Below are positions 10,448 to 28,849 of a stretch of DNA of 36,611 nt, piece after piece. Made by a program: the position numbers and the translations under genes. The notes under the pieces are model-generated. The model was not told the DNA's origin and searched no databases. It saw nothing but the letters and a program-made list of their open reading frames with translations. Origin of the DNA: a virus (taxonomy: Duplodnaviria; Heunggongvirae; Uroviricota; Caudoviricetes); IMG/VR virus record IMGVR_UViG_2874956758_000004, positions 1 to 36,611 of that record; one strand, given 5' to 3'. How positions within the stretch are numbered: the stretch's first letter is position 1; each line of letters starts with the position of its first letter.

Positions 10448-11077
10448 TCAGCCCCGGCTGGATCCAGTCATCAGGCTCTTTCTTAAAGGGGGAGTATTGA
10501 AATCACGAAGAAGAGCCTCCCGCACCGCAGCATCCATGTCTGCACCACTGGCAAGTGCTTCAATCTCTGCCGCCACCTGCAAATACCCCATGCAACGGCC
10601 AATGCGTTTCATAACTCTGGTGTTTTCGTCTTTCAGGCATCTGATAGCGAGATTAATAATTTTCAGGCAGTGATGATGCGATGCCCGGACAGGTTTTCCG
10701 TTCTCATAAACGACGAACTCACCCTCTTCACAGGAAACCCTGAAAGGCCGACGGGGTTCCTGGTCTTTATCCGGTGCAGACGCAATAAAATCACTTTTAT
10801 GCTCTTCCTCTCCGGCACTGTTAACCGTAATGACGTACTCAGGCCGCAGGTAAGCCGCCTCTTTTTCTGACAATGCGGCCGGTAAAAACTTTTCCTGCAA
10901 AAACTTCATAAAAGTCTCGTGAGCGACTTTGTGGCAGTAATCGTAAATCGCCGCATAATGCTCATCGCGGCGTTTGTTTTCATCTTCAGAACTCACCAAC
11001 GCCGACAATTTTTTATTAAGCTCAGTGATTTCATTTTCCAGGTGATTGAATCGCTGATTCATTTCTTCATGCTTCAT
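10448..11077 (-). CDS. Hypothetical 209-aa protein inserted between pinholin and endolysin
   Basis: ATG 3 nt after the S stop, preceded by GGGAGAG; N-terminal coiled-coil-like segment, HHH and five Cys in the C-terminal half; no family recognised. Confidence 0.6.
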   Translation of the reverse strand: MKHEEMNQRFNHLENEITELNKKLSALVSSEDENKRRDEHYAAIYDYCHKVAHETFMKFLQEKFLPAALSEKEAAYLRPEYVITVNSAGEEEHKSDFIASAPDKDQEPRRPFRVSCEEGEFVVYENGKPVRASHHHCLKIINLAIRCLKDENTRVMKRIGRCMGYLQVAAEIEALASGADMDAAVREALLRDFNTPPLRKSLMTGSSRG

Positions 11078-11080
11078 TAT

Positions 11081-11296
11081 TTACTCTCCCCGTGCAGCCT
11101 TACGCTTGTCTTCTCTTATTTTGAAATACAGATTCGTCAGATAAGTCAGAAGCCCCAGAAGCAGACTTCCCAGCACACCAATCGCAGCCCACTGTGACGG
11201 ACTGACCTGATCAAGCCACTGCAAAAACCAGTAGCCGGCACTGCCGGCGGAGGTGCCGTAGGCAATGCCCGTTGAAATTTTATCCATGGATTTCAT
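11081..11296 (-). CDS. S: Phage-21-type pinholin with dual start (Met1/Met4)
   Basis: [71 protein letters not shown] matches remembered S21. Confidence 0.85.
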
Positions 11297-11588
11297 AGCC
11301 TCACCTCCGCAAATAACGGATGGCGTAGTTTTACACTGAGAAATGAAAGGGATTTGAAAAGAAAAAAACGCAAAAGCGGGCGAAACGATATATACAGTAA
11401 GGAAAGCACTCTATCCAACAAACCACCCACAGTTAATCGGAATAAAAGCAGAGTGCTTATGAATGATCGCACGCCCGAAGGTTAGTATTTCTGCACAGCA
11501 ATTTTGCAAAAAAAGGCGATCATTCATAACTTAAACGTCTTTCAGTCACTCCGGGATTTCCCATCATCGCAGACTGAAAGACTCTGAC

Positions 11589-11663
<75 letters not shown>

Positions 11664-11666
11664 ATA

Positions 11667-11742
<76 letters not shown>

Positions 11743-11744
11743 GC

Positions 11745-11821
11745 TGGCCCACCACCGAGGACTCGAACCTCGCACCGTCAACTTAGAAGGTTGATGCTCT
11801 ATCCGGATGAGCTAGTGGTGG
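11745..11821 (-). tRNA. tRNA-Arg (anticodon UCU, reads AGA)
   Basis: Reverse complement CCACCACTAGCTCATCCGGATAGAGCATCAACCTTCTAAGTTGACGGTGCGAGGTTCGAGTCCTCGGTGGTGGGCCA; perfect acceptor stem, anticodon loop CTTCTAA. Confidence 0.75.
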
Positions 11822-11822
11822 T

Positions 11823-11899
11823 TGGTGGCCCTTGCTGGACTTGAACCAGCGACCTGGCGATTATGAGTCGCTCGCTCTGACCAACTGAGCTAAAGGGCC
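11823..11899 (-). tRNA. tRNA with CAU anticodon, ileX-like (probable lysidine tRNA-Ile2 rather than Met)
   Basis: Reverse complement GGCCCTTTAGCTCAGTTGGTCAGAGCGAGCGACTCATAATCGCCAGGTCGCTGGTTCAAGTCCAGCAAGGGCCACCA; T arm and anticodon arm resemble remembered E. coli ileX. Confidence 0.75.
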
Positions 11900-11981
11900 G
11901 GAGGCAGAATAATAACCATATGTCATCACATCTGCAAACTCATCGTAAGCGTACAGCGAGGGCCGTATTGACGGGGATGTG

Positions 11982-13514
11982 TTATTCAGCTGGCAGTGCT
12001 ATGCGCCACGGAAGCAGTTCGCTGACCCGGTTGACCGGCCAGTCTGCTATGACGCCAAGCACATGGCGAAGGTAGCTTTCTGGATCCACGTCATTCAGTT
12101 TGCACGTCCCGATCAGGCTGTACAGTAGCGCTCCCCGCTCACCACCATGGTCAGAGCCGAAGAACAGGAAGTTTTTACGACCCAGACTGACCGCCCGCAG
12201 GGCATTTTCAGCGATGTTGTTGTCGATTTCCACCCAGCCATCGTTCGCATAGTACGTCAGTGCCGGCCACTGGTTAAGTGCGTACGCGAACGCCTTCGCC
12301 AACTCTGAGTGTCGCGACAGGGTCTTCATCTTTTCACGCAACCAGCTTTCCAGGGATTTCAACAGCGGTTTCGTTTTTCGCTGACGTTCAGCAAGCCGCT
12401 GCTCTGCCGGCATTCCCCTTATATCCGCCTCTATGGCGTACAACTGACCGAGCTGCTCCAGGGCTTCTTCCGTCAGTGCTGACGGGATGCGGACGTGCAC
12501 ATCGTGGATCTTTCGGCGGGCATGAGCCCAGCAGGCAGCTTCCGTTATCCCACCATTGCGGTACAGCTCGTTGAACCCGGCGTACGCATCCGCTTGCAGC
12601 ACACCGCTGAAGCAAGCAAGATGAGTCTGCGGATGGATGCCTTTTCTGTCCGGGCTGTAAGCGAACCACACTGCAGGTGCCAACGCTGACCCGGCATTGC
12701 GGTCATCACGAACATACGCCCACAACCGCCCGGTCTTCGTCTTCTTATTACCCGGCATCAGTACCTGGACCGGGGTATCATCAGCATGGAGTTTGCCGTC
12801 AGTCATGACATAGCCATGAAGCGCCTCTTCCAGCGGAGACAGCAGCCGGCAGCATGCATCCACCCAGCCCGACAGCAGTGAACGGCTCAGCTTCACACCT
12901 TGCCGGCCGTATATTTCTGACTGGCGATACAGCGGGGTGTGCTCTGCATACTTCGAGGTCAGCACGCGGGCCAGCAGCCCCGGTCCGGCGATACCCCGCT
13001 CGATGGGCCGCGAAGGTGCAGGTGCCTGCACGATGGCATCGCACTGAGTACAGGCATGTTTTTCCCGTACCGTCCGGATAACCCGGAAGGCACTACGCAT
13101 CAACTCCAGCTGTTCGGCGGTATCCTCGCCCAGATAGCTCAGTGAACCGCCGCAGTTCGGGCAGCACGGCGCCGCAGGCAACAGTCGCTTTTCGTCACGG
13201 GGTAGTGATTCAGGGAACGGCTTACGGGTGCGGGTCTGACGCAACGGACGCTGTACTGCCGGGTCATACACCCTACCAGTCAGCGTATCGCTCTCTTTCT
13301 GAAGCCGGTTCAGATCGGCTTCCATTTGTGCGATACGGCGGGAGACTTTTTCGGAACGACTGCCGAAGTTCATCCGGCGGAGTTTATCCAGCTGCGCCTG
13401 CAGATGGTCTATTTCGCGCTCCCGGTTGCTCAGCTTTTCCTGCAGGGCGTGGATCTCCTGTTCGGCCAGGCGCTGTTTCAGCAGGAAGATGTCGTCAGAA
13501 GAGATGTCGTTCAT
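11982..13514 (-). CDS. IS66-family transposase TnpC (orf3)
   Basis: 510-aa ORF with N-terminal coiled coil and CxxC zinc-finger segment (CCPNCGG…CTQC). Confidence 0.85.
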
Positions 13515-13563
13515 AAGCCCGTATTTTACCGGGCTTATTCTGTGACAACCAGGATAAAGAGAT

Positions 13564-13911
13564 TTACAGCATGGTCAGGGAGGTCAGCAGCCGCTTAGGC
13601 TGTCGCCAGTCGATACCTTCCAGCAGCATCGCCAGCTGCGCCTGCGTAAGGAACACTTTGCCATCACGGGCTGACGGCCAGGCGAAGCGCCCACGCTCCA
13701 GCCGTTTGGTCAGGAGGCACAGTCCGTCACCGGTGGACCACAGCAGTTTAACCTGACTGCCGCTGCGGCCCCGGAAAATGAAAACATGGCCGGACATGGG
13801 ATCGTCTTTCAGCGCCGTCTGTACTTTCGCAGCCAGACCGTTGAAGCCATTTCTCATATCGGTGATACCGGCAACCAGCCAAATTTTGGTCCCGGAAGGT
13901 AACGGGATCAT
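13564..13911 (-). CDS. IS66-family TnpB (orf2)
   Basis: 115-aa [34 protein letters not shown]… typical of IS66 orf2. Confidence 0.85.
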
Positions 13912-14309
13912 CGCTTCAGTTCCTGTATCAGCAGAGTCAGGAGCTTTTCGCTGACATTGCCATTGAAGCGGAGCGTCCCGTGCCGGAACGTTACCTCACA
14001 GCTGATACTGAGGGTTTCCGGGTCCTCTGCGAGCGATTCTGGCTGTTCGGCAGCTGCATCGAGAGTCACAGGAAGTAGCTGGGGGCTCTCTGAAGAAGGT
14101 AATAGCAGCTTTCCCTCGCGCCATTGTTGTCGCCATTTGAACAACAGATTGGCGTTAATGCCATTTTCAAGAGCAAGTTTTGAGATGGATATCCCGGGTT
14201 CACAGGAGGCAGCAACGAGCTGCTGTTTAAATTCGGGAGGATAATTAGGGCAGCCTTTTCGCCTGCCGGGAGTCACATTTTTCTGCATATCTGACACTTT
14301 GGTTCCCAC
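13908..14309 (-). CDS. IS66-family TnpA (orf1)
   Basis: 133-aa ORF, first of the three-gene IS66 arrangement. Confidence 0.8.
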   Translation of the reverse strand: MGTKVSDMQKNVTPGRRKGCPNYPPEFKQQLVAASCEPGISISKLALENGINANLLFKWRQQWREGKLLLPSSESPQLLPVTLDAAAEQPESLAEDPETLSISCEVTFRHGTLRFNGNVSEKLLTLLIQELKR

Positions 14310-14430
14310 TACTTATTGGTGGACACCACTTTGTCTAATTCGTCAGATTCTGACCAGACGGTTCAGGCTGTACGCTTACAACTCATCTGACCACCAGCGT
14401 GTTTAACGTCCTGTACCGTTTTTCAGGCAT

Positions 14431-14455
14431 AAAAAACCCGCCCGGAGGCGGGTTT
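14431..14455 (-). terminator. Intrinsic terminator downstream of Q (tR'-like)
   Basis: Minus strand reads aaacccgcc tccg ggcggg followed by TTTTTTAT. Confidence 0.6.
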
Positions 14456-14541
14456 AAGCTGTGTGGCGAAGCAACCACTCTTAACAGAATATCCCGTTTT
14501 TTACGTACGTAAAATATTTTCTAGAAAGTCGTCCCTTACCA

Positions 14542-14922
14542 TCAGGGATGTTCAATATATTTGTCCATTTCTAACCGGACACCCAACATCATCAACATTC
14601 CTTCCACCACCCCCTCGGCTTTTTGTAGCTTCTTTCCTATATAACCATCTGAGCATCCATGCTTCCGCGCCAGCGTCATGAATGTCATCCCAAACACGTA
14701 GTAGTCAACCAGCAAGTCATGTAGATCGTTGTTGTTCCGGTTAAGGCGGGCCATACACCCACATATAACCATCGCGTCATCGTCACAGCATTGCGGGCGG
14801 GATTTTACTTTTGAAGGGATTAATCCCTTAAAACCGGCAGCAATGGACGACCAGGTCACATCCTCATGATTATTAGCCACCCACGCGCCCCAGCGCTCAA
14901 GAACCTGCTGAATATCACGCAT
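14542..14922 (-). CDS. Q: Late-gene antiterminator Q (DLP12 QuuD-like); start taken at MRDIQQ
   Basis: [60 protein letters not shown]… matches remembered QuuD. Confidence 0.8.
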
Positions 14923-15118
14923 CACTGTCTTTACCCCTGTCCCATCCACGATGAACAATCAGAACACCATCAACAATGGCGTGCCCTTTGCCCTCTTTAT
15001 CTTCAGCATATTTTCTTACCGTGGCGCGATTACAGTTCAGCATTCGTGAAACTTCGGTCATATTACCTCGTGTCTGGATAAGCAGTTCCGGTATCGTTTG
15101 AATTTTGACGCTCATCAA
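14915..15118 (-). CDS. ninH: NinH-like DNA-binding protein
   Basis: …[57 protein letters not shown]… closely resembles lambda NinH. Confidence 0.75.
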
Positions 15119-15209
15119 ATACTCTCCGGTTCGGTGATTTTTATCCCGGGCTTTCCACCAGGGACATAATGATCGCGCACAAGCCAGGGCAAAACAAACT
15201 CATGGCGCA

Positions 15210-15467
15210 TCAGCGCAGCGCCTCCTGCACCAGTTTTTCAAACTTTCCGACTCTGGTTTCCAGCTCTGCCACACAGTCCACCAGCTCATCTACTGCTTTC
15301 TGTGCGCGATGCTTCGCCTGCATCAGTTCCCGAAGCGCGGGTACCATATCTTTACGGATAGCGTCTTTTGTTATGCCCGTTTTTTCGAGTTGTTCAGCAT
15401 GACGCAGCATTTCCTGCGCGTGTTTACGCAATTGTTCAGGGGTAAAAGTCATTGTCTGGTTGTTCAA
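15210..15467 (-). CDS. Hypothetical 85-aa protein (coiled-coil-like), nin-region position
   Basis: ORF ends 3 bp inside the DnaB-like gene start region; no family recognised. Confidence 0.4.
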   Translation of the reverse strand: MNNQTMTFTPEQLRKHAQEMLRHAEQLEKTGITKDAIRKDMVPALRELMQAKHRAQKAVDELVDCVAELETRVGKFEKLVQEALR

Positions 15468-16855
15468 AAGAAACGCTCCATCTTACTGCTGTCAGTTCGT
15501 TTATTACTGTATCTGCGCGGATTGCCGGGCTTCATGGGAGTGGAAAGCACCCGTGCACTTTCCTGGTCCACAGGCAGAAAATGTCCGTTATAAAAACGCC
15601 GGTAAATCGTTCCCAGAGAACCGTTACGTTGTTTCGTGATATTGATTTCTGCGATGCCCCTGGCCTGCGTATCCGGGTTGTACACTTCATCCCTGTAAAG
15701 CATCAGAATGATGTCTGCATCCGCCTCTATTTCTCCGGAATTTTTCAGGTCTGAGTTCATGGGACGTTTATTGGGTCTGGACTCCACACCGCGGGAGAGC
15801 TGGCTCAGCGCAATCAACGGAAAACCACCGGATTTTGCCAGGCCTTTAAGCCCCTTTGAGATTTCACCCACGGCAAGGTCATGACGCCCTGTGGTTCGGG
15901 TTTTTATCAGCCCGAGATAATCAACCACCACCAGCGCCGTTTCCGGATATTTAATCAGGTGGTGTTTCGTTGTTGCGCATATCTCATCAATGGCCAGGTT
16001 CGCCTGGTCCACCATCCAGATATTGCGCCCGGTCATCCGCCCCACCCCTTGTGAGAAACGCGCCCAGTCTTCATCTTCAAAGTGAGCCACAGATTTCAGG
16101 CGTGATACTGGCATCCCTCCAGCCGCAGACACCATACGTTCACCAATCTGGATGTTCGCCATCTCCATGGTGAACAGAAGCACACCATGCCCCTGCTCAG
16201 TCACCCTGTCGATGATGTCCAGCGCAAGTTCGGTTTTCCCCATCGAAGGACGGGCGGCAATGAATACCAGGTCTCCGGGCTCCATACCGCCTGTTTTTGC
16301 GTCCAGTTCATCAATACCGGTCATCAACGTCCTGGATTTCTCCAGCCCCTGATTCCGGCATTCAACACGCTCAACCACTTCCGGAAGCACATCATCAATA
16401 TGTACCGGCTGAATGACGCCCTTTCCTGTCGACAGTGTGACCATCATGTTCTGCGCATCCTTCAGGGCATCTTCAGCTGCTTCACAGGTATGCGCATCAC
16501 GTAATTTCTGCAGCGCCTCATTCAGTGTTTTTTCTGCATCGCGCAGTGCGGCATTGCGCCGCAACGCTGCAACATAGTGCTCCAGTGAAGACTTCACCCA
16601 GGTTTTACGCCCGGTATCAGTAATCACCGGGGCAAGTTCCGGCATCTCATTACACAACAGCACGGGGTCAATCACTCCTGAAACACGGGCCTGTCTGCAG
16701 ATGCCTGTATAGATATCCTGATACGCTCGTACAGAAAAAACGTCCGCTGGCAGTGTGGCCAGAATATCCATCACTTCAGGATCTGCTCCGCGCAGAAAGA
16801 ACGCGCCGATGACAGCGCCTTCAAGGTCATCGTTACGCCATACTGGAGTTGTCAT
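15464..16855 (-). CDS. DnaB-family replicative helicase
   Basis: 463-aa ORF with Walker A ARPSMGKTELAL and DnaB-like C-terminal domain. Confidence 0.85.
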   Translation of the reverse strand: MTTPVWRNDDLEGAVIGAFFLRGADPEVMDILATLPADVFSVRAYQDIYTGICRQARVSGVIDPVLLCNEMPELAPVITDTGRKTWVKSSLEHYVAALRRNAALRDAEKTLNEALQKLRDAHTCEAAEDALKDAQNMMVTLSTGKGVIQPVHIDDVLPEVVERVECRNQGLEKSRTLMTGIDELDAKTGGMEPGDLVFIAARPSMGKTELALDIIDRVTEQGHGVLLFTMEMANIQIGERMVSAAGGMPVSRLKSVAHFEDEDWARFSQGVGRMTGRNIWMVDQANLAIDEICATTKHHLIKYPETALVVVDYLGLIKTRTTGRHDLAVGEISKGLKGLAKSGGFPLIALSQLSRGVESRPNKRPMNSDLKNSGEIEADADIILMLYRDEVYNPDTQARGIAEINITKQRNGSLGTIYRRFYNGHFLPVDQESARVLSTPMKPGNPRRYSNKRTDSSKMERFF

Positions 16856-17739
16856 GCAGCCACACCTCTGATACGAGAACGGTAACTGGGCCAGTTAAAC
16901 GACAACCAGTTGCGTCCCCCGTCTGTGATCCTGTCGGCAATTCGGGGACTGATGAACGCCCACAACTCTTCCGGTGAGAGGTTACTGATCAGAATGGTGG
17001 GCAAGATACTTTCGTACCTGGCGTTGATAATTTCCTGCAAAATAGCCATTTCAGCCGCGCTGCCAAACTGAACGCCAACTTCGTCGATGATCAGCAAATC
17101 CATTGACGCATAACGCTCAATAACTTCATCCGCTGTTTTTTCGCTGTCATTCCGCCAGCAATTTTTCACAGCACGGGTAAGGCGCATCACGTCGGTGATC
17201 TCCACACTGGCCAGATAGTTACGGATGATGTGTTTTGCCATAGCCACAGCCAGATGATTTTTTCCGGTACCACAACTGCCGGTCATAACAAGACTGGTAC
17301 CGTTCTCCAGCATATCTGGCCAGTTCTCCGCATAGCGGCGACAGGCCGCAAGATTTCTGGCTGCGTCAGGATTAACCTCCAGATAATTATCAAACTCGTA
17401 GTCCCGAAAACGCAGGGCAATTCCGGCGTTATCAGTCAGCTCTTCCGCCTTGATGGACGACAGCTCCATGGTCAAATCGTTGGCCTCAGCGATTAAGCAG
17501 TCAGAGCAGCATGAAATTTTTTCTCTGTCCTCGCCATTACGATCGCTCCACACCAGTATATTCGTGTGATATTCGCCATGTTTTTCGCAATATCCGCGAC
17601 CTTCACGCATCAGGCAGGAACGATAAGGCCATGGCTTTTCGCCCTTCTGAGCAAATGCAATCTCTGCCCGTAACTCATCCATTCGCGCCTGTAGTCTTTT
17701 TTGTTGTTCACGCAGGTTAAACGTCATCATCGCTGTCAC
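16852..17739 (-). CDS. DnaC/IstB-like AAA+ helicase loader with Cys/His-rich N-terminal segment; likely start at the internal ATG after GAGG
   Basis: Walker A GSCGTGKNHLAVAMA, Walker B LLIIDEVG; stop of the upstream initiator frame overlaps its start. Confidence 0.8.
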   Translation of the reverse strand: MTAMMTFNLREQQKRLQARMDELRAEIAFAQKGEKPWPYRSCLMREGRGYCEKHGEYHTNILVWSDRNGEDREKISCCSDCLIAEANDLTMELSSIKAEELTDNAGIALRFRDYEFDNYLEVNPDAARNLAACRRYAENWPDMLENGTSLVMTGSCGTGKNHLAVAMAKHIIRNYLASVEITDVMRLTRAVKNCWRNDSEKTADEVIERYASMDLLIIDEVGVQFGSAAEMAILQEIINARYESILPTILISNLSPEELWAFISPRIADRITDGGRNWLSFNWPSYRSRIRGVAA

Positions 17740-18154
17740 CTCAGAATGTCAGTTTGTCACTGGATTTACCGAATTTGTCAGACATGGCTCCCAGGCCAGC
17801 CAGGACATCGACCTGTCGCTGTCGCCCACCTCCGGGAGCGGCTGGCTGTTGCCAGAATTCTTCGAAGTGACGATCAGGTCCAAAGAACGTCGCTGCCTGC
17901 TTCACGAACTGTGTGCCGTTATTTCCTGTAGCACGTATCTAGGCGGCATACCGCTTCACGCCATCAAGCATGGTCTCCGGTTTTATTCCCTCCCTGATAC
18001 GGGCTTTCCAGGCTTTGAAGGCTGCTGACTTGGAATTACCACCAGCACGTTTGGGATATTCCTGCCAGGCCTGTTCAAATTCCGGTGAATATTCCTGTCG
18101 GGCAGAACGCGCTGGTGCAGACGCGTCAGCGGATGCGCCAATAGTGTTTTTAGT

Positions 18155-18206
18155 CTCTGTAGTATTCTCTGAAGTAATCTCTGTTGTATTCTCTGTTGTA
18201 TTCTCT
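18155..18206. repeat. Tandem 12-bp repeats (about 4.5 copies) inside the initiator gene
   Basis: tctctgtagtat tctctgaagtaa tctctgttgtat tctctgttgtat tctctgtaag. Confidence 0.7.
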
Positions 18207-18220
18207 GTAAGATCGAAATT

Positions 18221-18335
18221 GGTTTTCCCTTCTCCGAGGCGAGGGGTTTCCCGTGTCCGCGGTGAAGGCTTTCCCTCCTCCGCGAAATTGGGTTTTACAG
18301 TTTCCCGAAAACGGGTTTCCCCATTTCGGGAAAAC
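18221..18335. repeat. Five dispersed GGTTTCCC-type repeats at 17-23 bp spacing inside the initiator gene
   Basis: ggttttccc, ggtttcccg, gctttccct, ggttttacagtttccc, ggtttcccc, followed by an AT-rich stretch. Confidence 0.6.
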
Positions 18336-18805
18336 TGATTGTTTTCATTGATAATTTCATTAAGGCGCTCACAATCTATACGGTAGAACATTTTGTGCTC
18401 AAGACGCTTGTTGGTTTCAACCAAAATGCCTCTGGACACAAGATGCTTACGCGCTACAGCCTGTTGTTCAAATGTAAGTCCGGTTTCGTGTTGTATCTCT
18501 TCACGCGTTTATGTACGCCTTCCGCTGCATGTGCTTTATCCTGCCAGTAAAAAATCTTACCAAAGAAAATAACAGCGTGCGGACTTCCCATGTATTTAAC
18601 GAGCCCAGGGTAATAAGCAACCGGATGTCCAAAATCGAGCAGAAGATCAGACGGACGCATAGCCACCTCCCAGGCGTTTAAACATTTTCCCGGACTGAAA
18701 CACCACCAGTGGGTAACTGATGGTGTAGCTACGCCCCAGTAATTCACACACAACTTTCTGGTTGAGGTGTACTGGCAATAGCGGACACTACCATTTGTTC
18801 TTTTT

Positions 18806-19624
18806 TTAAGCAGCCATCTGATGATATTTTTCCCTGAAGGCTGCCGGGGAGATATTCCCCAGACGAGAGTGACGACGCTGACGATTGTAGAAAATCTCAA
18901 TGTATTCCCGTATTACTGAGATGGCTTCATCCCGGTTATTAAAACGATAGTGGCTCAGGCTCTCATTTTTCAGCGTTCCCCAGAAGCTTTCCATCGGAGC
19001 GTTGTCGTAACAGTTACCTTTACGCGACATTGATGTTTTCAGACCAGACTGCTCCTGTATGACCCGGTAATCGTATGCGCAGTACTGTGAACCTCGATCA
19101 GAGTGGTGGATTAGCCCGGCAGGTGGGCGCTGGCTCCTGAGCGCCATAAACAGGGCTTTACCTGTCAGCTCTTTTGTCATGCGCTCTCCCATGGCGTAGC
19201 CGACAATTTCGCACGTATAAACATCTTTGACGCCGGCGAGATACAGCCATCCTTCCCGGGTGGCAACATACGTTATATCTGCGACCCAGACCTGATTAGG
19301 TGCTGTGGGCGTAAAGTTCTGATTCAGCAGATTCGGCGTAACCGGCAGATTGTGGTCTGAGTTTGTGGTCGCCCTGAATTTGCGTTTCTGCTTACAGTGC
19401 AGCCTCAGCTCCTTACGAAGACGTGCCAGTCGGTCACGACCAACGATGATGCCATTCTCTGCCAGCTCCGTCTGGAGCCGCCGGGTTCCATATGTTTCGC
19501 GAGTGCGGATATGTGCCACCTTAATCTCCAGTTTTAGCCGCTCATCACTTTGTTTTCTGTCTGAGGGTTCATGCTGTACCCAGTTGTAATAACCGCTCCT
19601 GGATACACCAAATACCTGACACAT
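18806..19624 (-). CDS. IS600 OrfB, intact reading frame (272 aa)
   Basis: MCQVFGVSRSGYYNWVQHEPSDRK…HSDRGSQYCAYDY…YHQMAA with no internal stop. Confidence 0.85.
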   Translation of the reverse strand: MCQVFGVSRSGYYNWVQHEPSDRKQSDERLKLEIKVAHIRTRETYGTRRLQTELAENGIIVGRDRLARLRKELRLHCKQKRKFRATTNSDHNLPVTPNLLNQNFTPTAPNQVWVADITYVATREGWLYLAGVKDVYTCEIVGYAMGERMTKELTGKALFMALRSQRPPAGLIHHSDRGSQYCAYDYRVIQEQSGLKTSMSRKGNCYDNAPMESFWGTLKNESLSHYRFNNRDEAISVIREYIEIFYNRQRRHSRLGNISPAAFREKYHQMAA

Positions 19625-19920
19625 CGCTTCAACAGGGAATTGTTGTCGCCATTGTTCGACTAACGCGTATTTTTCAGCGACTCCTGGGCAAAATACGCTG
19701 TTGTAGATTCAATCTGTCAATGCAACACCCCTTTCAATTATCTCTTTCGGTGTTTTGAACTTCAGTGTCTTTCTCGGTCTGTTGTTTAGCTGAGCAGCAA
19801 CCAGATCTAGTTCATGTTGAGTATATTGGGCAAGACATGTCTTTTTAGGAAAGTACTGCCGAATTAGCCCATTTGTGTTCTCATTTGTTCCCCGCTGCCA
19901 AGGACTCTGAGGATCGCAGA

Positions 19921-21525
19921 AGGGGATGCGGACGATTTCCTGGACTGCTTTATCATTCCAGCCCGCATTGTTGGCGGTACATTTCAGGGCTGACTGCACC
20001 CAGCGATAATTTTATACGCCGCTCGTTATACCATCTGATGTAAGCATCTACATGCTGCATGAACTTTTCTGGCGTGATGCCCGACCATTTACGCCCATAA
20101 TACATTTCCGTTTTCAGTCTGCCGAAAAAGCCTTCGCATGCAGCATTATCAGGTGAACATCCTTTACGGGACATTGAGCGAATAAGACCTGCTGCATTCA
20201 CTCTTTCCAGCCAGCCTGGCCAGCGATAATGCCCACCTCTGTCACTGTGTATCACCGGTCGTTCGCCAGCATTTAACGTTTCGACAGCGCTATCCAGCAT
20301 AGTGTTGACCAGTTCAGCATCGGGGCGTGTACTGAGAGACCAGCTCACAACTTTTCCATCGAAGCAGTCCACCACCGGTGACAGCCAGACTTTACCTGCA
20401 GGGAGCTGGAACTCCGTGATATCTGTCAGCCATTTCTGATTAGGTTGCTCCGCCTTAAAATCTCTGGCGATAAGGTTATCCGGAGCCGGTCCGATTTTTC
20501 CGCAATATGAGCTGTAGCGGCGCCGACGGTTACGGCTGACGACAAGCTGTTCCTCCACCATAAGTCTGCGTACAACCTTTTCTGATAGCCGAACCCCCTC
20601 ATGCCTGAGCATCGCATGCAGGCGACGATAGCCATAACACTGGTAATTACTGTTAAATATATCTGTCAGCATCGTACGTATCGTGGCGTATTTATCACCG
20701 GCTTTCAGGGCAGCCCGGTGATAAAAATAACTGCTACGGGCAAGGCCCAGAACATGCAGTAATTCTGTCAGGGGATATGTTTGTCTCAGGGCATCAGCGA
20801 TCTTTGTTTTTTCTCTGTTGTTCAGGTGACTGATACTGATGCCCGGGTCTTTTTTTATGATTTCCTCCGCCTTTTTCAGAATATCCAGCTCCATCTGCCG
20901 GCGGCGTATTTCCTGATTCAGTCGGGCGACTTCCTCCCGCAACGCATCGCGTTCTGCCTCCAGGGAAGGTTCGTTATGTTTACGCATAGTCTGGTAAGCA
21001 CTGTTGCCGATAATTTCATCTTTCCATTTATACAATACCGCACGACTGACACCAATACGCCTGGCGATTTCACTGGCTGATACTTGTCGTGTACAGAGTG
21101 CCATGACAGCCTGACGTTTGACTTCTGGTTCAAAGGGCGCAACCGGGTTGGCCTTACTGGTAAATATACGTCGTCTGTCGGGATAAAGTTCATTAACCCA
21201 GCGAGCGAGTACATCAGTGCAGGGATAACCCAGGGCTCTGCTGGTAAACGCCAGGCAGCAGCCGTGGTTAAGATAATGTTCAACGGCAACCTGTTTTTGT
21301 TCATCGGAGTAACGGTGCTTATGACGAATAGATTCTTTTGCGCCACCACCTGCTTCCCATGAGCGGATCCAACGCCGCAGATTTCTTTTCGAAGGGTAGC
21401 CCAGTTCGCGTACGACGGGAGCCAGCTTCTTACCATATTTGAAATAAAGCTCAATGGCGCGGATTTTTTCTTCTTCAGTAAACATGTGTTATCTCCTGAG
21501 AGTCCAGGAAATCGTCCGCATCCCC
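19921..21525 (-). mobile_element. IS3-superfamily element (1605 bp), 25-bp perfect terminal inverted repeats, 3-bp target duplication
   Basis: Ends GGGGATGCGGACGATTTCCTGGACT / AGTCCAGGAAATCGTCCGCATCCCC; gaa at 19918-19920 and 21526-21528. Confidence 0.8.
19953..21485 (-). CDS. Single-ORF transposase, 510 aa (two N-terminal HTH-like segments plus integrase-type DDE domain)
   Basis: …WLTDITEF…, …HSDRGGHYRW…, C-terminal …SLGAVSPEMYRQQ typical of IS3-family OrfB, fused to an OrfA-like N-terminus with no frameshift. Confidence 0.75.
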   Translation of the reverse strand: MFTEEEKIRAIELYFKYGKKLAPVVRELGYPSKRNLRRWIRSWEAGGGAKESIRHKHRYSDEQKQVAVEHYLNHGCCLAFTSRALGYPCTDVLARWVNELYPDRRRIFTSKANPVAPFEPEVKRQAVMALCTRQVSASEIARRIGVSRAVLYKWKDEIIGNSAYQTMRKHNEPSLEAERDALREEVARLNQEIRRRQMELDILKKAEEIIKKDPGISISHLNNREKTKIADALRQTYPLTELLHVLGLARSSYFYHRAALKAGDKYATIRTMLTDIFNSNYQCYGYRRLHAMLRHEGVRLSEKVVRRLMVEEQLVVSRNRRRRYSSYCGKIGPAPDNLIARDFKAEQPNQKWLTDITEFQLPAGKVWLSPVVDCFDGKVVSWSLSTRPDAELVNTMLDSAVETLNAGERPVIHSDRGGHYRWPGWLERVNAAGLIRSMSRKGCSPDNAACEGFFGRLKTEMYYGRKWSGITPEKFMQHVDAYIRWYNERRIKLSLGAVSPEMYRQQCGLE

Positions 21526-22423
21526 GAAGTAAACTTTAACGCTGGTGCTGACAGTAAATTCTAGATGTCTGGCCAGTTCCATTCCTCTGTCCCATGTCAG
21601 TGATTTTCTGAGTTCTGACGGTAAACTCAGGAATTTGTCGGTAAGAGCCTGATTTACTGAGACAGAATCTTTGCCCCTGAGTCTAAGGATGATCGTATAA
21701 CGTGATTTTCGGTCTACAAGTGTGGCTATATGAGAGTTTTTTGTACCTGAGACTAAATCGCCCTCCCAATGTCCCAGAGAGCGTCTGTTATCGATATTTC
21801 GGGAACGATCGTGAATTGGTGTTCCGTTCACTATGTTAATCGTACCTCTTTCGCCTTTGCGGGTATGACGCCTGCCATGGCGAAGGCTATGCGACCGTCG
21901 CAGATGCTGTATATTCAGGTGGTGTAGCGCTTCACGGCTACGAAAGTACAGCGTTTTATAAATTGTCTCAGGTGATATTCGCAGCGTTTTTTGACGTGGT
22001 TTTGTTCGCCTTAACCATCCTGATATTTGCTCTGGAGACCATTTCATCTCCAGCTTTTCCAGAACAAGCTTTCGCAATGGTAAATTTTGATCCAGTAAGC
22101 ACGGTTTTGGCCTTTTCGCCATTCTGTTGGCTCGGTTATTAGCATCAACAGCTTTGTAATAGCGTCTGCCCCGATTACGCTGAACTTCACGTGAGATCGT
22201 CGAAGGACTGCGATTCAGCGCAGTAGCTATCGCACGAATGCTCATTTTGACTGACAAACCAGCTCGTATCTCCTCGCGCTCAGACAGTGTCAGGTGAGCT
22301 ACAGCCCGCTTACGCTCATGGGGTTTTATGCCGCCAGTATCCCTTAACATAGTGAAGATCGTTCCGGGTTTTGAACCCAGGATATTCGCTATTTCACTGA
22401 AGCCTGTTCCGTTCTTCCATAGT

Positions 22424-22792
22424 TCAAAAACAGAGGCTTTTTCCTCTGCTGTAAATGTTCGTCTCATTCAAAAAACCTCCGCAACCCCATGTTTTCACAT
22501 AACTGTTGCGTTGACCAATTGAATCTACAGTTGCTTTTTTTAATATATCTCGCTCAAGGCGAGCTTCATTTAACGCCTTACGCAGTTGCAGAATTTCAGA
22601 TTCCAGTTCAGCCACCGTGCGGGAACCAGGAGTACCGAGCCCTTTTCTGGCGGCGGTAACCCATTGTCCTAAAGTGCCTTCAGGAAGGGATAATCGGGAA
22701 GCGCCTTCACTGATCGAAAGTTGATTTTCAAGAACCGTTCTGACAGCTTCGGCTTTGAACTCTTTAGAGTAACGTTGGGTTTTTCTGCTCAT
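22424..22792 (-). pseudogene. IS600 OrfA (copy 2), 3' end displaced by IS30
   Basis: Same 122-aa translation as copy 1. Confidence 0.8.
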
Positions 22793-23125
22793 TATTAGCT
22801 CCTTCTGATGCCATTCTATTTCAGGAAGGAGTGTCCGTTAAACTCAGGCTACCTCAGTCGGCAGTTTTGTTCCATCACGTCTTCCTGCATCAACGGGCAA
22901 ATATGTTACTGTTGCTGGAATATTAACAACAGTCCAATGCCACCAACCACTGCCTGTAGGTGCATCTGGATCATATACAGTTACGGCAAAGCTTTTGGTA
23001 CCTTCAGGGACACCAGACCAGGTTAATGAGGGCGATGTATTACCACCTTCACACCCAAATCCAGAAAAGACATGAGACGTTGTAAGTTGCTCTCCTGTTT
23101 TTATTTCATTACTAGGCTGTGTCCC

Positions 23126-25194: not shown

Positions 25195-25285
25195 TAGACT
25201 GGCCCCCTGAATCTCCAGACAACCAGTATCACTTAAATAAGTGATAGTCTTAATACTAGTTTTTAGACTAGTCATTGGAGAACAG

Positions 25286-25651
25286 ATGATTGATGTCTTA
25301 GGGCCGGAGAAACGCAGACGGCGTACCACACAGGAAAAGATCGCAATTGTTCAGCAGAGCTTTGAACCGGGGATGACGGTCTCCCTCGTTGCCCGGCAAC
25401 ATGGTATAGCAGCCAGCCAGTTATTTCTCTGGCGTAAGCAATACCAGGAAGGAAGTCTTACTGCTGTGGCCGCCGGAGAACAGGTTGTTCCTGCCTCTCA
25501 ACTTGCTGCCGCCATGAAGCAGATTAAAGAACTCCAGCGCCTGCTCGGCAAGAAAACGATGGAAAATGAACTCCTCAAAGAAGCCGTTGAATATGGACGG
25601 GCAAAAAAGTGGATAGCGCACGCGCCCTTATTGCCCGGGGATGGGGAGTAA
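25286..25651 (+). CDS. insC: IS2 OrfA (InsC)
   Basis: As other copies; one substitution (QHGIAAS). Confidence 0.9.
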
Positions 25652-26514
25652 GCTTAGTCAGCCGTTGTCTCCGGGTGTCGCGTGCGCAGTTGCACGTCAT
25701 TCTCAGACGAACCGATGACTGGATGGATGGCCGCCGCAGTCGTCACACTGATGATACGGATGTGCTTCTCCGTATACACCATGTTATCGGAGAGCTGCCC
25801 ACGTATGGTTATCGTCGGGTATGGGCGCTGCTTCGCAGACAGGCAGAACTTGATGGTATGCCTGCGATCAATGCCAAACGTGTTTACCGGATCATGCGCC
25901 AGAATGCGCTGTTGCTTGAGCGAAAACCTGCTGTACCGCCATCGAAACGGGCACATACAGGCAGAGTGGCCGTGAAAGAAAGCAATCAGCGATGGTGCTC
26001 TGACGGGTTCGAGTTCTGCTGTGATAACGGAGAGAGACTGCGTGTCACGTTCGCGCTGGACTGCTGTGATCGTGAGGCACTGCACTGGGCGATGACTACC
26101 GGCGGCTTCAACAGTGAAACAGTACAGGACGTCATGCTGGGAGCGGTGGAACGCCGCTTCGGCAACGATCTTCCGTCGTCTCCAGTGGAGTGGCTGACGG
26201 ATAATGGTTCATGCTACCGGGCTAATGAAACACGCCAGTTCGCCCGGATGTTGGGACTTGAACCGAAGAACACGGCGGTGCGGAGTCCGGAGAGTAACGG
26301 AATAGCAGAGAGCTTCGTGAAAACGATAAAGCGTGACTACATCAGTATCATGCCCAAACCAGACGGGTTAACGGCAGCAAAGAACCTTGCAGAGGCGTTC
26401 GAGCATTATAACGAATGGCATCCGCATAGTGCGCTGGGTTATCGCTCGCCACGGGAATATCTGCGGCAGCGGGCTTGTAATGGGTTAAGTGATAACAGAT
26501 GTCTGGAAATATAG
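25609..26514 (+). CDS. insD: IS2 OrfB (InsD)
   Basis: As other copies; one substitution (HWAMTTGG). Confidence 0.9.
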
Positions 26515-26525
26515 GGGCAAATCCA

Positions 26526-26694
26526 ACACCGTTCGCCAGACCTTACCATCAACGACCAGGATTCCTGCCCGCGCCATTTTAGCCGCAGCCTGATTTATGC
26601 TGGTTACGGTTGCGCCTGTTACCGCGGCAACGTCCTGCGCACAGAAGTTCTTATGAGTCCCCAGGTAATGAATAATTGCCTCTTTGCCCGTCAT
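26526..26694 (-). pseudogene. ren: ren, 3'-truncated by IS2
   Basis: MTGKEAIIHYLGTHKNFCAQDVAAVTGATVTSINQAAAKMARAGILVVDGKVWRTV matches remembered lambda Ren N-terminus, then runs into the IS2 end. Confidence 0.75.
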
Positions 26695-27392
26695 ACCCTT
26701 GCTCCTTTCAGCCCAAACTTAGCTTTGATTTCTGCGATCTTCGCCAGAGTCTGTGCACGATTTAGAGGTCTACCGCCCATGACAGGAAGTTGTTTTACTG
26801 GTTCAGGTATAGCCTCACCACGGTTAATTCGTGCGGTCATACAGGACAGTTCATCGGCAGCCTTGCGCCGTAATTCCGCGTCAGTCAACGCATTGGCCCG
26901 CATGTTCTGATACAGGTTGGTAACCAGCCAGTAGTGCGCGTTTGATTTCCACGGATAAGACTCTGCATCCGGATACAGCCCGCGCTTCCGGCAATACTCG
27001 TAAACCATATTAACCAGCTCGCTGGCGTTTGGCAGCCCGGCGGTAACGGATGCTTCTTCCTGGCACCAGGCGACAAACTGCCCGGGTGATGGCAGGAATG
27101 GTCGATTCTGCCGACGGGCTACGCGCATTCCTGCGTTAACCTGTTCCATTGTGGTGATCCCGTTTTCCCGGAAAGCCAGAACCCACTGGCGGCGGATTTC
27201 GTTCAGTTCATTCTGGTCACGGTTAGCCAGGCTCGCCGGGAAAGTTGCCAGTAACTGGCTGAACACACCGTTGATGATCTGCGCTACCTGCTGTACCTGT
27301 GGCTTTTCGTCGTACTGTTCCGGCATGTTGTTGGCGATCCGGCGCATCTGCTCACAGTCAAAGTTAACCATCTGTGCGGCGATGTTTTTCAT
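26691..27392 (-). CDS. P: Lambda-type replication protein P
   Basis: 233-aa translation MKNIAAQMVNFDCEQMRRIANNMPEQYDEKPQVQQVAQIINGVFSQLL… near-identical to remembered lambda P. Confidence 0.9.
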   Translation of the reverse strand: MKNIAAQMVNFDCEQMRRIANNMPEQYDEKPQVQQVAQIINGVFSQLLATFPASLANRDQNELNEIRRQWVLAFRENGITTMEQVNAGMRVARRQNRPFLPSPGQFVAWCQEEASVTAGLPNASELVNMVYEYCRKRGLYPDAESYPWKSNAHYWLVTNLYQNMRANALTDAELRRKAADELSCMTARINRGEAIPEPVKQLPVMGGRPLNRAQTLAKIAEIKAKFGLKGARV

Positions 27393-28223
27393 AGCTCCAC
27401 CCCGTAAATCCAGTCAGTGTTCGTCAGGTCGAGTTTTGGTTTGCCGGCTGTCACGCCAGCCTGTTGCTTGTTTCGGTTGATTTCGAGCTGGGTCCACTTG
27501 TCGCGGAGTTTGGCCGGACTTAGCACGTTACCGGACCAGAAGTTGTCCTGGCATGCCCAGCGGAACAGCACGCACATGTCGCGGTGGTTACGTCCGTCAC
27601 GTTCACGCATCAGGCGGATATCGTTAGCCCACCCTGCAAAATTCGGTTTTCTGGCTGATGGCGCGATGGTCTTCACCATGTCAAACATCCACTCTGCGGC
27701 GGTCAGGTCTTCTGCTGTCCCCCACTTGCTGCCGCTCTGAATTGCAGCATCCGGTTTCACCACAGGAAGATCGTTTTCTGGTTGGTCAGAGGATTCGCCA
27801 GAATTCTCGGACGAAAAAGGTTTTATATTGTCTTTTGTTAGTTTGTCTTTTGTGTTTACCTGATTTGGGTAATGTTGACCATTCACTGACCACATTATTA
27901 ATGCCGGTATTCCGCCCGCTCTGAATAAAAATCCCACGCTTTACCAGAACACTTTTTGCAGCAGAACACTTGTGCGGCAATATCCCGGTTAATTCGGAAA
28001 GTTGCTCGTTGCTAACCCAATCCAGTTTTTTATTAAAGCCATATGTTTTGCGCATGACAGCCAGAAAGACCAGAAGCTGGTGCTGTGTTAATCCGGCCAG
28101 CATCACAGCTTCCAGCAACTCATTTGCAATGCGCGTATAACCATCATCGAGATCTGCCACGCGCGGCTCCTTTTGTGCCGCATCCGGCACTGGAAAATTG
28201 AATATCTCAGCAGTGCTTGCCAT
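27389..28223 (-). pseudogene. O: Lambda-type replication initiator O, N- and C-terminal domains in different frames
   Basis: N-terminal domain (…PRVADLDDGYTRIANELLEAVMLAGLTQHQLLVFLAVMRKTYGFNKK…) stops at 27786; lambda-identical C-terminal domain (SSENSGESSDQPENDL…WIYGVEL) is in another frame. Confidence 0.7.
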
Positions 28224-28309
28224 AATTCCTCCCGCAATGAGTGTGTTACGATTTGCACCTGAAAGTCGGTTCTGTTCCAGCAGACCGGCTTTCGCCATTT
28301 CTGAACCTG

Positions 28310-28849
28310 TCATATCGCCCCCAGCATGGTAGTAACCATCGCCATCAATGGACCAGCCAGATCTGGGTCCACACGAAACATCGACACAATACCTTCACTA
28401 ATTTCCTTCAGTTTCTGGTGGCGTGGTGCGTTGAGAATGACAGCCTGTTTTGCCTCACTGAGTTCCTTTTCCATTTCAGCCAACCTAGCCATGAAGCTAT
28501 CCTGCTCAACCAGGTAACCGCGATATTCCAGCGGTAGTACCGCCAGAATTGCCGGGGTCAGTTCACGCACGTTATTTCGGTATTTTTCAGAATCGAATTT
28601 GTTATCGAGGAAGCGGAACAGCTTCTGGCGTGCACGGCTGACATCATCAGGGAAATCGATGGTGCCGCCACCCTGCTCCCGATACTCATTCACAATGAGT
28701 GTGGCAACGACATCCTGATTATCTACAGCCGACCAGGCGCGGACGGCATCACGGATTTTTTCGTGGCCTGGCACCTGTTTTGTTTGAGAACGATTTATCA
28801 CCGCAGTCGGGCTAAATCCGCTAGTCTGTTGGTATGTAAGTGGTTGCAT
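28310..28849 (-). CDS. YdaT-like protein (Rac-prophage type) at the cII position
   Basis: …VATLIVNEYREQGGGTIDFPDD… and …LTPAILAVLPLEYRGYL… resemble remembered Rac YdaT. Confidence 0.5.
   Translation of the reverse strand: MQPLTYQQTSGFSPTAVINRSQTKQVPGHEKIRDAVRAWSAVDNQDVVATLIVNEYREQGGGTIDFPDDVSRARQKLFRFLDNKFDSEKYRNNVRELTPAILAVLPLEYRGYLVEQDSFMARLAEMEKELSEAKQAVILNAPRHQKLKEISEGIVSMFRVDPDLAGPLMAMVTTMLGAI

Follow-up and report, generated by a model that had tools for sequence, protein, structure and literature searches.

An ISEc8 variant inserted downstream of the antiterminator gene Q in a degraded lambdoid prophage remnant

The late regions of the Shiga toxin (Stx) phages are the closest described counterparts of the locus analysed here. 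In phage 933W (AF125520), the natural path from the late promoter pR' to the holin gene S is approximately 5.1 kb long, and three annotated terminators, three tRNA genes, and stx2AB are crossed on it. In the Sakai Stx phages, the terminator tR' was mapped by Term-seq at 258 nt from pR' and gives rise to the StxS small RNA; in addition, a primary transcription start of the tRNA promoter was mapped between tR' and stx2 in the Sakai Stx2a phage (PMC7547250). The PF06530 family of Q antiterminators was named Q21/Q933W in a structural paper, in which Q-loaded transcription complexes are described as processive and insensitive to pause sites and terminators (bioRxiv 10.1101/651190). Loading of Q takes place at the promoter-proximal pause. 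Q also suppresses polarity (10.1101/651190; PMC12360218). Insertion sequences (ISs) have been described in this late unit as well: in the E. coli O157:H7 Stx2 prophages Stx2a_F451 (AP012532) and WGPS4 (AP012538), ISEc8 lies within the Q-to-S unit (PMC10462455). Another copy of ISEc8, in the Stx2 prophage F349 (AP012530; locus L025, 6001-8442), is flanked by the replication helicase gene and the nin region. Here, we describe a variant of ISEc8, an IS of the IS66 family, in the Caudoviricetes record IMGVR_UViG_2874956758_000004 of IMG/VR (positions 1 to 36,611; this whole stretch of 36,611 nt is called the window). The element lies in the spacer between the terminator tR' behind the Q gene and the tRNA promoter pT. 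The coordinates of all features are collected in Table 1.

The reading that we prefer, with a probability of roughly 0.8, is that the ISEc8 variant was transposed recently, in a simple event, into the tR'-pT spacer of a Q933W-type lambdoid remnant, that Q-modified polymerase would read through it, and that the insertion is likely to be neutral. An earlier note, made from the DNA letters alone, had recognized an IS66-family element here, and this is borne out by the Pfam domains of TnpA, TnpB, and TnpC and by the 99.1% identity to ISEc8. The perfect 8-bp duplication that it reported was likewise confirmed: both copies are present beside the element, and the empty sites have a single copy. The insertion was said to lie 50 bp downstream of the Q terminator; the T-run of tR' ends 51 nt before ISEc8, and the other end of the element is approximately 7 bp upstream of the -35 hexamer of pT. 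The order of the elements, all on the minus strand, is Q, tR', ISEc8, four tRNAs, holin S, a 209-aa open reading frame (ORF), lysozyme R, and Rz, which agrees with the placement given in the note, between the terminator behind Q and the tRNA and lysis genes. It should be mentioned that the interval assigned to the element in the note (11945-14455) comprises ISEc8, one repeat copy, the spacer, and the terminator.

The event is a true simple insertion with exact ends, and it is real beyond chance. When the IS and one copy of the repeat were taken out, an empty site of 1208 nt was reconstructed, which was then searched in complete E. coli genomes. It is contiguous in nine of these genomes; eight of the nine carry the full 1208 nt at 99.7-99.8% identity, and the ninth has a coverage of 90%. 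All 11 comparison loci (L001-L011) have the exact 26-mer that spans the insertion point and contains GATGAGTT once. One of these loci, L001 (CFSAN029787), is an intact-looking lambdoid prophage integrated beside mlrA; the site is uninterrupted in L001 and, among the matches listed, in 10/10 genomes with an identical Q protein. Contiguity of the flanks in relatives, on which the reading as a simple insertion depends, was checked and was found. The occupied site was found in two NCBI assemblies only, namely GCA_002950055.1 (CP026831.1), with 100% identity over 9533/9533 nt, and GCA_031665835.1, with 99.9% identity. It was found in 0/5426 complete E. coli genomes, and the exact junction 32-mer CACATCTGCAAACTCATCGTAAGCGTACAGCG has no match among the GTDB species-representative genomes. 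A known element, an ordinary event, and an expected kind of place are combined at this locus.

The gene layout is that of IS66: tnpA, tnpB, and tnpC lie on a single strand, with a 4-nt overlap between tnpA and tnpB. TnpC has the accessory domains zf-IS66, LZ_Tnp_IS66, and IS66_C by Pfam. The arms of the inverted repeat are 82% complementary and both begin with GTAAGCGTACAGC, the GTAAGCG-type start of IS66/ISEc8. Copies annotated as ISEc8, with 99% identity to the element, occur in thousands of E. coli records and in several Stx phages. With the ISEc8 of the Stx2-converting phage 1717 and of E. coli O157:H7 genomes it shares the gene layout, the GTAAGCG ends, the 8-bp duplication, and an identity of 99.1% over the full length. 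Compared with the canonical ISEc8 of 2442 bp, the window copy has 15 substitutions, a deletion of 1 bp at 14317, upstream of tnpA, and an in-frame deletion of 6 bp in tnpC at approximately 13455. In a sequence look-up, the exact TnpC sequence of the window was found in two genomes and one read-set assembly only. A hairpin with a stem of 9 bp (AUAAGCCCG ... CGGGCUUAU) is present at 13505-13540 on the minus strand and covers the first two bases of the tnpC start codon; its z-score against shuffled sequences is -3.3, and it may be a feature for translational control of ISEc8.

The 2435-bp sequence was found, with 0-1 mismatches, at seven distinct loci across the two genomes that carry the occupied site, and five of the seven (the window locus and four others) have their own perfect 8-bp duplication. 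Because near-identical copies are present at seven loci, five of them duplicated, the ISEc8 variant is active now or was so recently. The two loci without matching 8-bp flanks are L013 and L015/L019 (in GCA_031665835.1 and GCA_002950055.1); loss of the duplication there suggests later recombination or deletion between copies in this lineage.

After removal of the IS, the interval from Q to the tRNAs was aligned to the annotated 933W record. The window Q is 85% identical to 933W Q and matches the Q21 chains in PDB (E=4e-8); the 126-aa gene is called in L001-L011, L016, and L020. The putative pR' aligns column for column with the 933W feature "pR'; putative late promoter", and the invariant block TAAGAGTGGTT lies just upstream of the qut box, the putative Q-utilization site. 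The earlier note had proposed to look for a late promoter and a Q-utilization site within 14456-14541, and by homology to 933W a putative pR'/qut is indeed placed there, at 14465-14513. The hairpin of tR' aligns with the 933W terminator at 20726-20748. It is part of the minimum-free-energy fold, with a free energy of -19.8 kcal/mol and a run of six U, and in the hairpin scan it was the sole hairpin with a T-run on the late strand from Q to the tRNAs. From these features, tR' is predicted to be the terminator that is overridden by Q-modified polymerase. Both tR' and pR' were missed by the built-in promoter and terminator scan and were recovered by the separate hairpin scan and by homology to 933W; tR' was missed because the A/T-extended stem probably takes part of the T-run.

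The window and the 933W late region thus share alignable pR', qut box, first terminator, and pT, and the first tRNA has the anticodon CAU, like ileZ. The window differs from 933W in lacking a segment of approximately 210 nt that holds the second terminator and in lacking the stx genes, in having four tRNAs instead of three, and in carrying the IS. In the Stx phages, the segment of approximately 210 nt carries the StxS small RNA; it is absent from the window and from all the empty-site relatives. An Rfam scan of the whole window returned the four tRNAs only, with no StxS-like or other family. The Sakai tR' corresponds to the second 933W terminator, which means that the Sakai transcripts pass the first hairpin. 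When the window (14429-14513) is compared with 933W (locus L022, 2667-2958), a terminated pR' transcript of the window would be only approximately 50 nt long. Leakage of transcription past tR' into tnpA may occur, despite the strong-looking hairpin.

On the other side of the insertion, the counterpart of pT in the alignment is the 933W feature annotated "pT; putative tRNA promoter", and the hexamers of the two are identical. The promoter scan found pT of the window in a register one base off (TTTGCA, 18-nt spacer, TATTAT). The first base of the -35 hexamer is the last base of the duplication. Creation or disruption of a promoter at the junction was considered and set aside: pT has the same -35 and -10 hexamers as in the empty site, the replacement being confined to the sequence ahead of the -35. 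The four tRNAs behind pT are CAU (Met by ARAGORN, Ile in RefSeq), Arg-UCU, Thr-UGU, and Gly-UCC. The spacer between the tRNA-Gly gene and the holin gene (11297-11588, minus strand) is unusually structured (z = -4.1) and contains long inverted repeats; within it, no clear canonical terminator for pT transcripts was found ahead of the holin. The lysis cassette is 98.5% identical to that of L001 without gaps, and the 209-aa ORF in it is kept in all related loci. The intact lysis genes speak neither for nor against coupling to Q, because decay would not yet be visible after so recent an insertion.

Table 1. Features of the window, with their positions, strands, and supporting evidence
Feature	Position	Strand	Evidence and remarks
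ISEc8 variant (IS66 family), 2435 bp	11945-14379	-	Inverted repeats; Pfam; ~99.1% identity to annotated ISEc8
ISEc8 inverted repeats, 22 nt	14358-14379 (tnpA end); 11945-11966 (tnpC end)		Exact element ends
tnpA, 126 aa	13908-14288	-	HTH_Tnp_1 (PF01527) by Pfam; gene calls in L016 and L020
tnpB, 115 aa	13564-13911	-	TnpB_IS66; Pfam PF05717, E=1.2e-38
tnpC, 510 aa, IS66 DDE transposase	11982-13514	-	PF03050 (DDE_Tnp_IS66), E=4.7e-107
Target-site duplication, Q-proximal copy	14380-14387		AACTCATC; perfect 8-bp repeat; single copy in empty sites
Target-site duplication, tRNA-proximal copy	11937-11944		AACTCATC; perfect 8-bp repeat
Q antiterminator, 126 aa	14542-14922	-	Q21/Q933W family; Pfam PF06530, E=5.8e-54
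pR', putative late promoter	14486-14513	-	-35 TTTACG (14513-14508), 16-nt spacer, -10 TATTCT (14491-14486)
qut box counterpart, putative	14465-14472	-	GCTTCGCC vs 933W ACATTGCC; alignment to 933W annotation
tR', intrinsic terminator	14429-14455	-	AAACCCGCC-UCCG-GGCGGGUUU and U-run; homologous to first of two 933W terminators
pT, putative tRNA promoter	11909-11937	-	-35 TTGCAG, 17-nt spacer, -10 TATTAT
Four tRNA genes	11589-11899	-	ARAGORN; Rfam RF00005 (four hits); RefSeq annotation of empty locus
Lysis cassette	9385-11296	-	All frames intact; Pfam Phage_holin_2_1, Phage_lysozyme, Phage_lysis
Holin S	11081-11296	-	Pfam; gene calls in L016 and L020
209-aa ORF between holin and lysozyme	10448-11077	-	No Pfam match; phrog_1085 (PHROGs of unknown function) only
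Lysozyme R	9849-10382	-	Pfam; gene calls in L016 and L020
Rz	9385-9852	-	Pfam; gene calls in L016 and L020
ipaH-type effector, 583 aa	1293-3044	+	LRR_TTSS and NEL E3 ligase; at tail-fibre end of remnant
IS2 copies (n=4)	1-458 (cut by window edge); 4077-5407; 25195-26525; 30199-31529
IS600 interrupted by IS30 (n=2)	6476-8962; 18763-22856

The earlier note was right that transcripts from the late promoter must traverse ISEc8: pR', qut, and the whole Q loading region lie upstream of the element and are intact. In the course of events proposed here, pR' would fire, with most transcripts ending at tR'. Q, if made, would load at pR'/qut upstream of ISEc8, and the terminator-resistant polymerase would cross tnpA-tnpB-tnpC into the tRNAs and S-R-Rz, with some loss at most. 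The tRNAs would stay served by pT, whether Q is present or not. The note had gone further and considered the lysis cassette to be probably decoupled from Q. This claim is unsupported, as tR' is predicted to be overridden by Q, the IS has no terminator on the sense strand, and the path of approximately 5.1 kb in 933W provides a precedent; by analogy with the described Q systems, uncoupling seems unlikely. Because the 933W late transcript already spans that distance, an extra 2.4 kb would not be unusual. Nor is an IS in this late unit unusual, because F451 and WGPS4 carry ISEc8 there. In these prophages the element lies between stx2B and nanS-p and is opposed to late transcription, whereas in the window it lies after tR' and before the tRNAs and is co-oriented. 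From the Stx2 titres of F451 and WGPS4 (PMC4645166), nothing can be concluded on read-through: the stx2 genes precede the IS, and polymyxin was used to lyse the cells.

The main rival explanation is polarity: the 2.4-kb IS would block the polymerase, such that Q-dependent transcription falls short of S-X-R-Rz and lysis is disarmed, whereas the tRNAs are kept via pT. The geometry is correct for such a block, and pT gives the tRNAs a route that is independent of Q. Furthermore, F349 carries ISEc8 co-oriented with transcription in the N-dependent, antiterminated pR operon, and Stx2 of its host strain is reported as not inducible by mitomycin (a titre of 2 whether or not mitomycin was given, strain differences being uncontrolled; PMC4645166). 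Together with F349, several points weigh against read-through of ISEc8. The hexamers of pR' have 8/12 consensus matches and are under the threshold of a generic promoter scan; pR' and qut were assigned by homology to 933W features that are themselves annotated as "putative"; and the passage of Q-loaded polymerase through ISEc8 is extrapolated from the biochemistry of lambda, 82, and 21 and from the anatomy of 933W. Some downstream expression may be lost through polarity. A polar block nevertheless seems unlikely. Q-loaded polymerase disregards terminators and pauses, and polarity is suppressed by Q, as described above. Neither a sense-strand terminator nor an opposing orientation, by which a polar insertion would be recognized, was found: both the built-in scan and the separate hairpin scan detected no hairpin with a T-run inside ISEc8 on the strand of the late transcript, Rho-dependent sites being not predictable from sequence. 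The ISEc8 genes are co-oriented with late transcription, therefore no head-on conflict is expected, and the ORFs are tightly packed and presumably translated. The pR'-to-S path of 933W already contains three terminators over approximately 5 kb. Strain differences are uncontrolled in the comparison with F349, and the same insertion is present in phage 1717.

The co-orientation of ISEc8 and its position 51 nt behind the late promoter and the Q-controlled terminator also allow a different explanation, in which read-through from pR' or leakage of the terminator drives the transposase operon of this copy, so that it might be the hyperactive source of the ISEc8 burst in the lineage. pR' is described as constitutive in lambda and is predicted to be so in the Stx phages, the 258-nt transcript of Sakai runs beyond the homologous first hairpin (PMC7547250), and identical copies are present at no fewer than six loci (at least six) in one genome. 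On the other hand, tR' is a strong canonical terminator (free energy of approximately -20 kcal/mol, six U), the 9-bp hairpin over the tnpC start could limit translation of any transcript, and nothing marks the window copy as the source. We consider this explanation very improbable. As for an assembly artefact or an IS-mediated rearrangement junction in place of a true insertion, the two further ISEc8 copies without duplications in the same genomes mean that rearrangements at ISEc8 do occur in the lineage. The window copy, however, has a perfect duplication, its flanks are colinear with the empty sites, and the junctions are identical in two independent assemblies; an artefact or rearrangement is ruled out by these observations for practical purposes. 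The reading as a recent simple insertion, through which Q-loaded polymerase would pass, is retained.

The surroundings of the insertion bear on its consequences. The window is a non-working, heavily degraded prophage remnant. Homology to the intact relative L001 is restricted to 9385-11944 and 14380-18737. Past Rz, no terminase, capsid, head, or tail genes were found in the window; instead, a DUF4406 gene, the IS600 interrupted by IS30 (6476-8962), a tail-fibre fragment, and IS2 (4077-5407) follow, and beyond this IS2 there are a tail-fibre-assembly-like gene, the ipaH-type gene, and the end of another IS2. The arrangement expected of a late operon, lysis genes followed by morphogenesis genes on the same strand, is thus kept only in its lysis part. 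By its ipaH gene, the source is identified as Shigella or enteroinvasive E. coli, and the host genome, IS-rich and ipaH-positive, is probably that of Shigella dysenteriae ATCC 12039; a plasmid of this strain, CP026830.1, is the best plasmid match to the IS2 of the window. IS DNA, ISEc8 included, accounts for approximately 13.5 kb of the 36.6-kb window (approximately 37%). The IS600 at 18763-22856 is a nest of 4.1 kb, which consists of IS600, IS30, and a nested IS3-family element (ISEc52-like by E. coli annotation).

On the other side of Q, a truncated replication-initiator ORF (17939-18439) adjoins position 18737, where the homology to L001 ends just before the IS nest; beyond the nest are a recombinase fragment, a transposase fragment, and another copy of IS2. 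The truncated initiator belongs to a first replication module (15464-18439), together with a DnaC-like loader and a DnaB-like helicase. A second module, of the lambda O/P type, is located at 26691-28313. Because two different replication modules stand in series and the homology to L001 ends beside IS600, the window suggests a chimera, in which two prophages were fused by IS-mediated recombination. The O gene (27389-28313, minus strand) is split into two overlapping ORFs in different frames, which match consecutive parts of one PHROG profile. Similarly, the cI-like repressor gene (29254-29942, plus strand) has its helix-turn-helix part in one frame and its S24 part in another, again as consecutive parts of one PHROG profile. 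From their reading frames, cI and O look like frameshift pseudogenes. Between the cI-like gene and a Kil-like ORF (31646-31972), the IS2 at 30199-31529 is located. On the pL side (30199-31972), where the Kil-like ORF follows IS2, no gene for an N antiterminator was recognized. The early promoters are separated from Q by several IS elements.

In these respects the window resembles the IS-riddled prophage remnants of Shigella that carry ipaH: it shares with them the NEL gene beside tail-fibre fragments, the dense copies of IS2, IS600, and IS30, and the phage pseudogenes. Within what we take to be a class of IS-riddled ipaH prophage remnants in Shigella chromosomes, the window looks typical, with no notable difference. 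Expression of Q from the remnant is doubtful, and beyond the lysis genes nothing is left for Q to activate. The insertion is most likely to be selectively neutral, because the prophage is defunct: morphogenesis genes are absent, cI and O are frameshifted, no N was found, and IS elements precede Q. Because the prophage is already degraded, the question of decoupling is largely moot.

The locus is one more case in which IS expansion erodes the prophages of Shigella, and its importance is mainly for annotation. Since the insertion has so far been found in two assemblies only, it is a possible lineage marker. It also provides a conceptual correction: a terminator directly after Q is one that Q overrides, and inserting DNA downstream of such a terminator is not in itself enough to uncouple the late genes from Q. 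The occupied and empty alleles form a clean natural pair for the reach of Q-loaded polymerase through foreign DNA.

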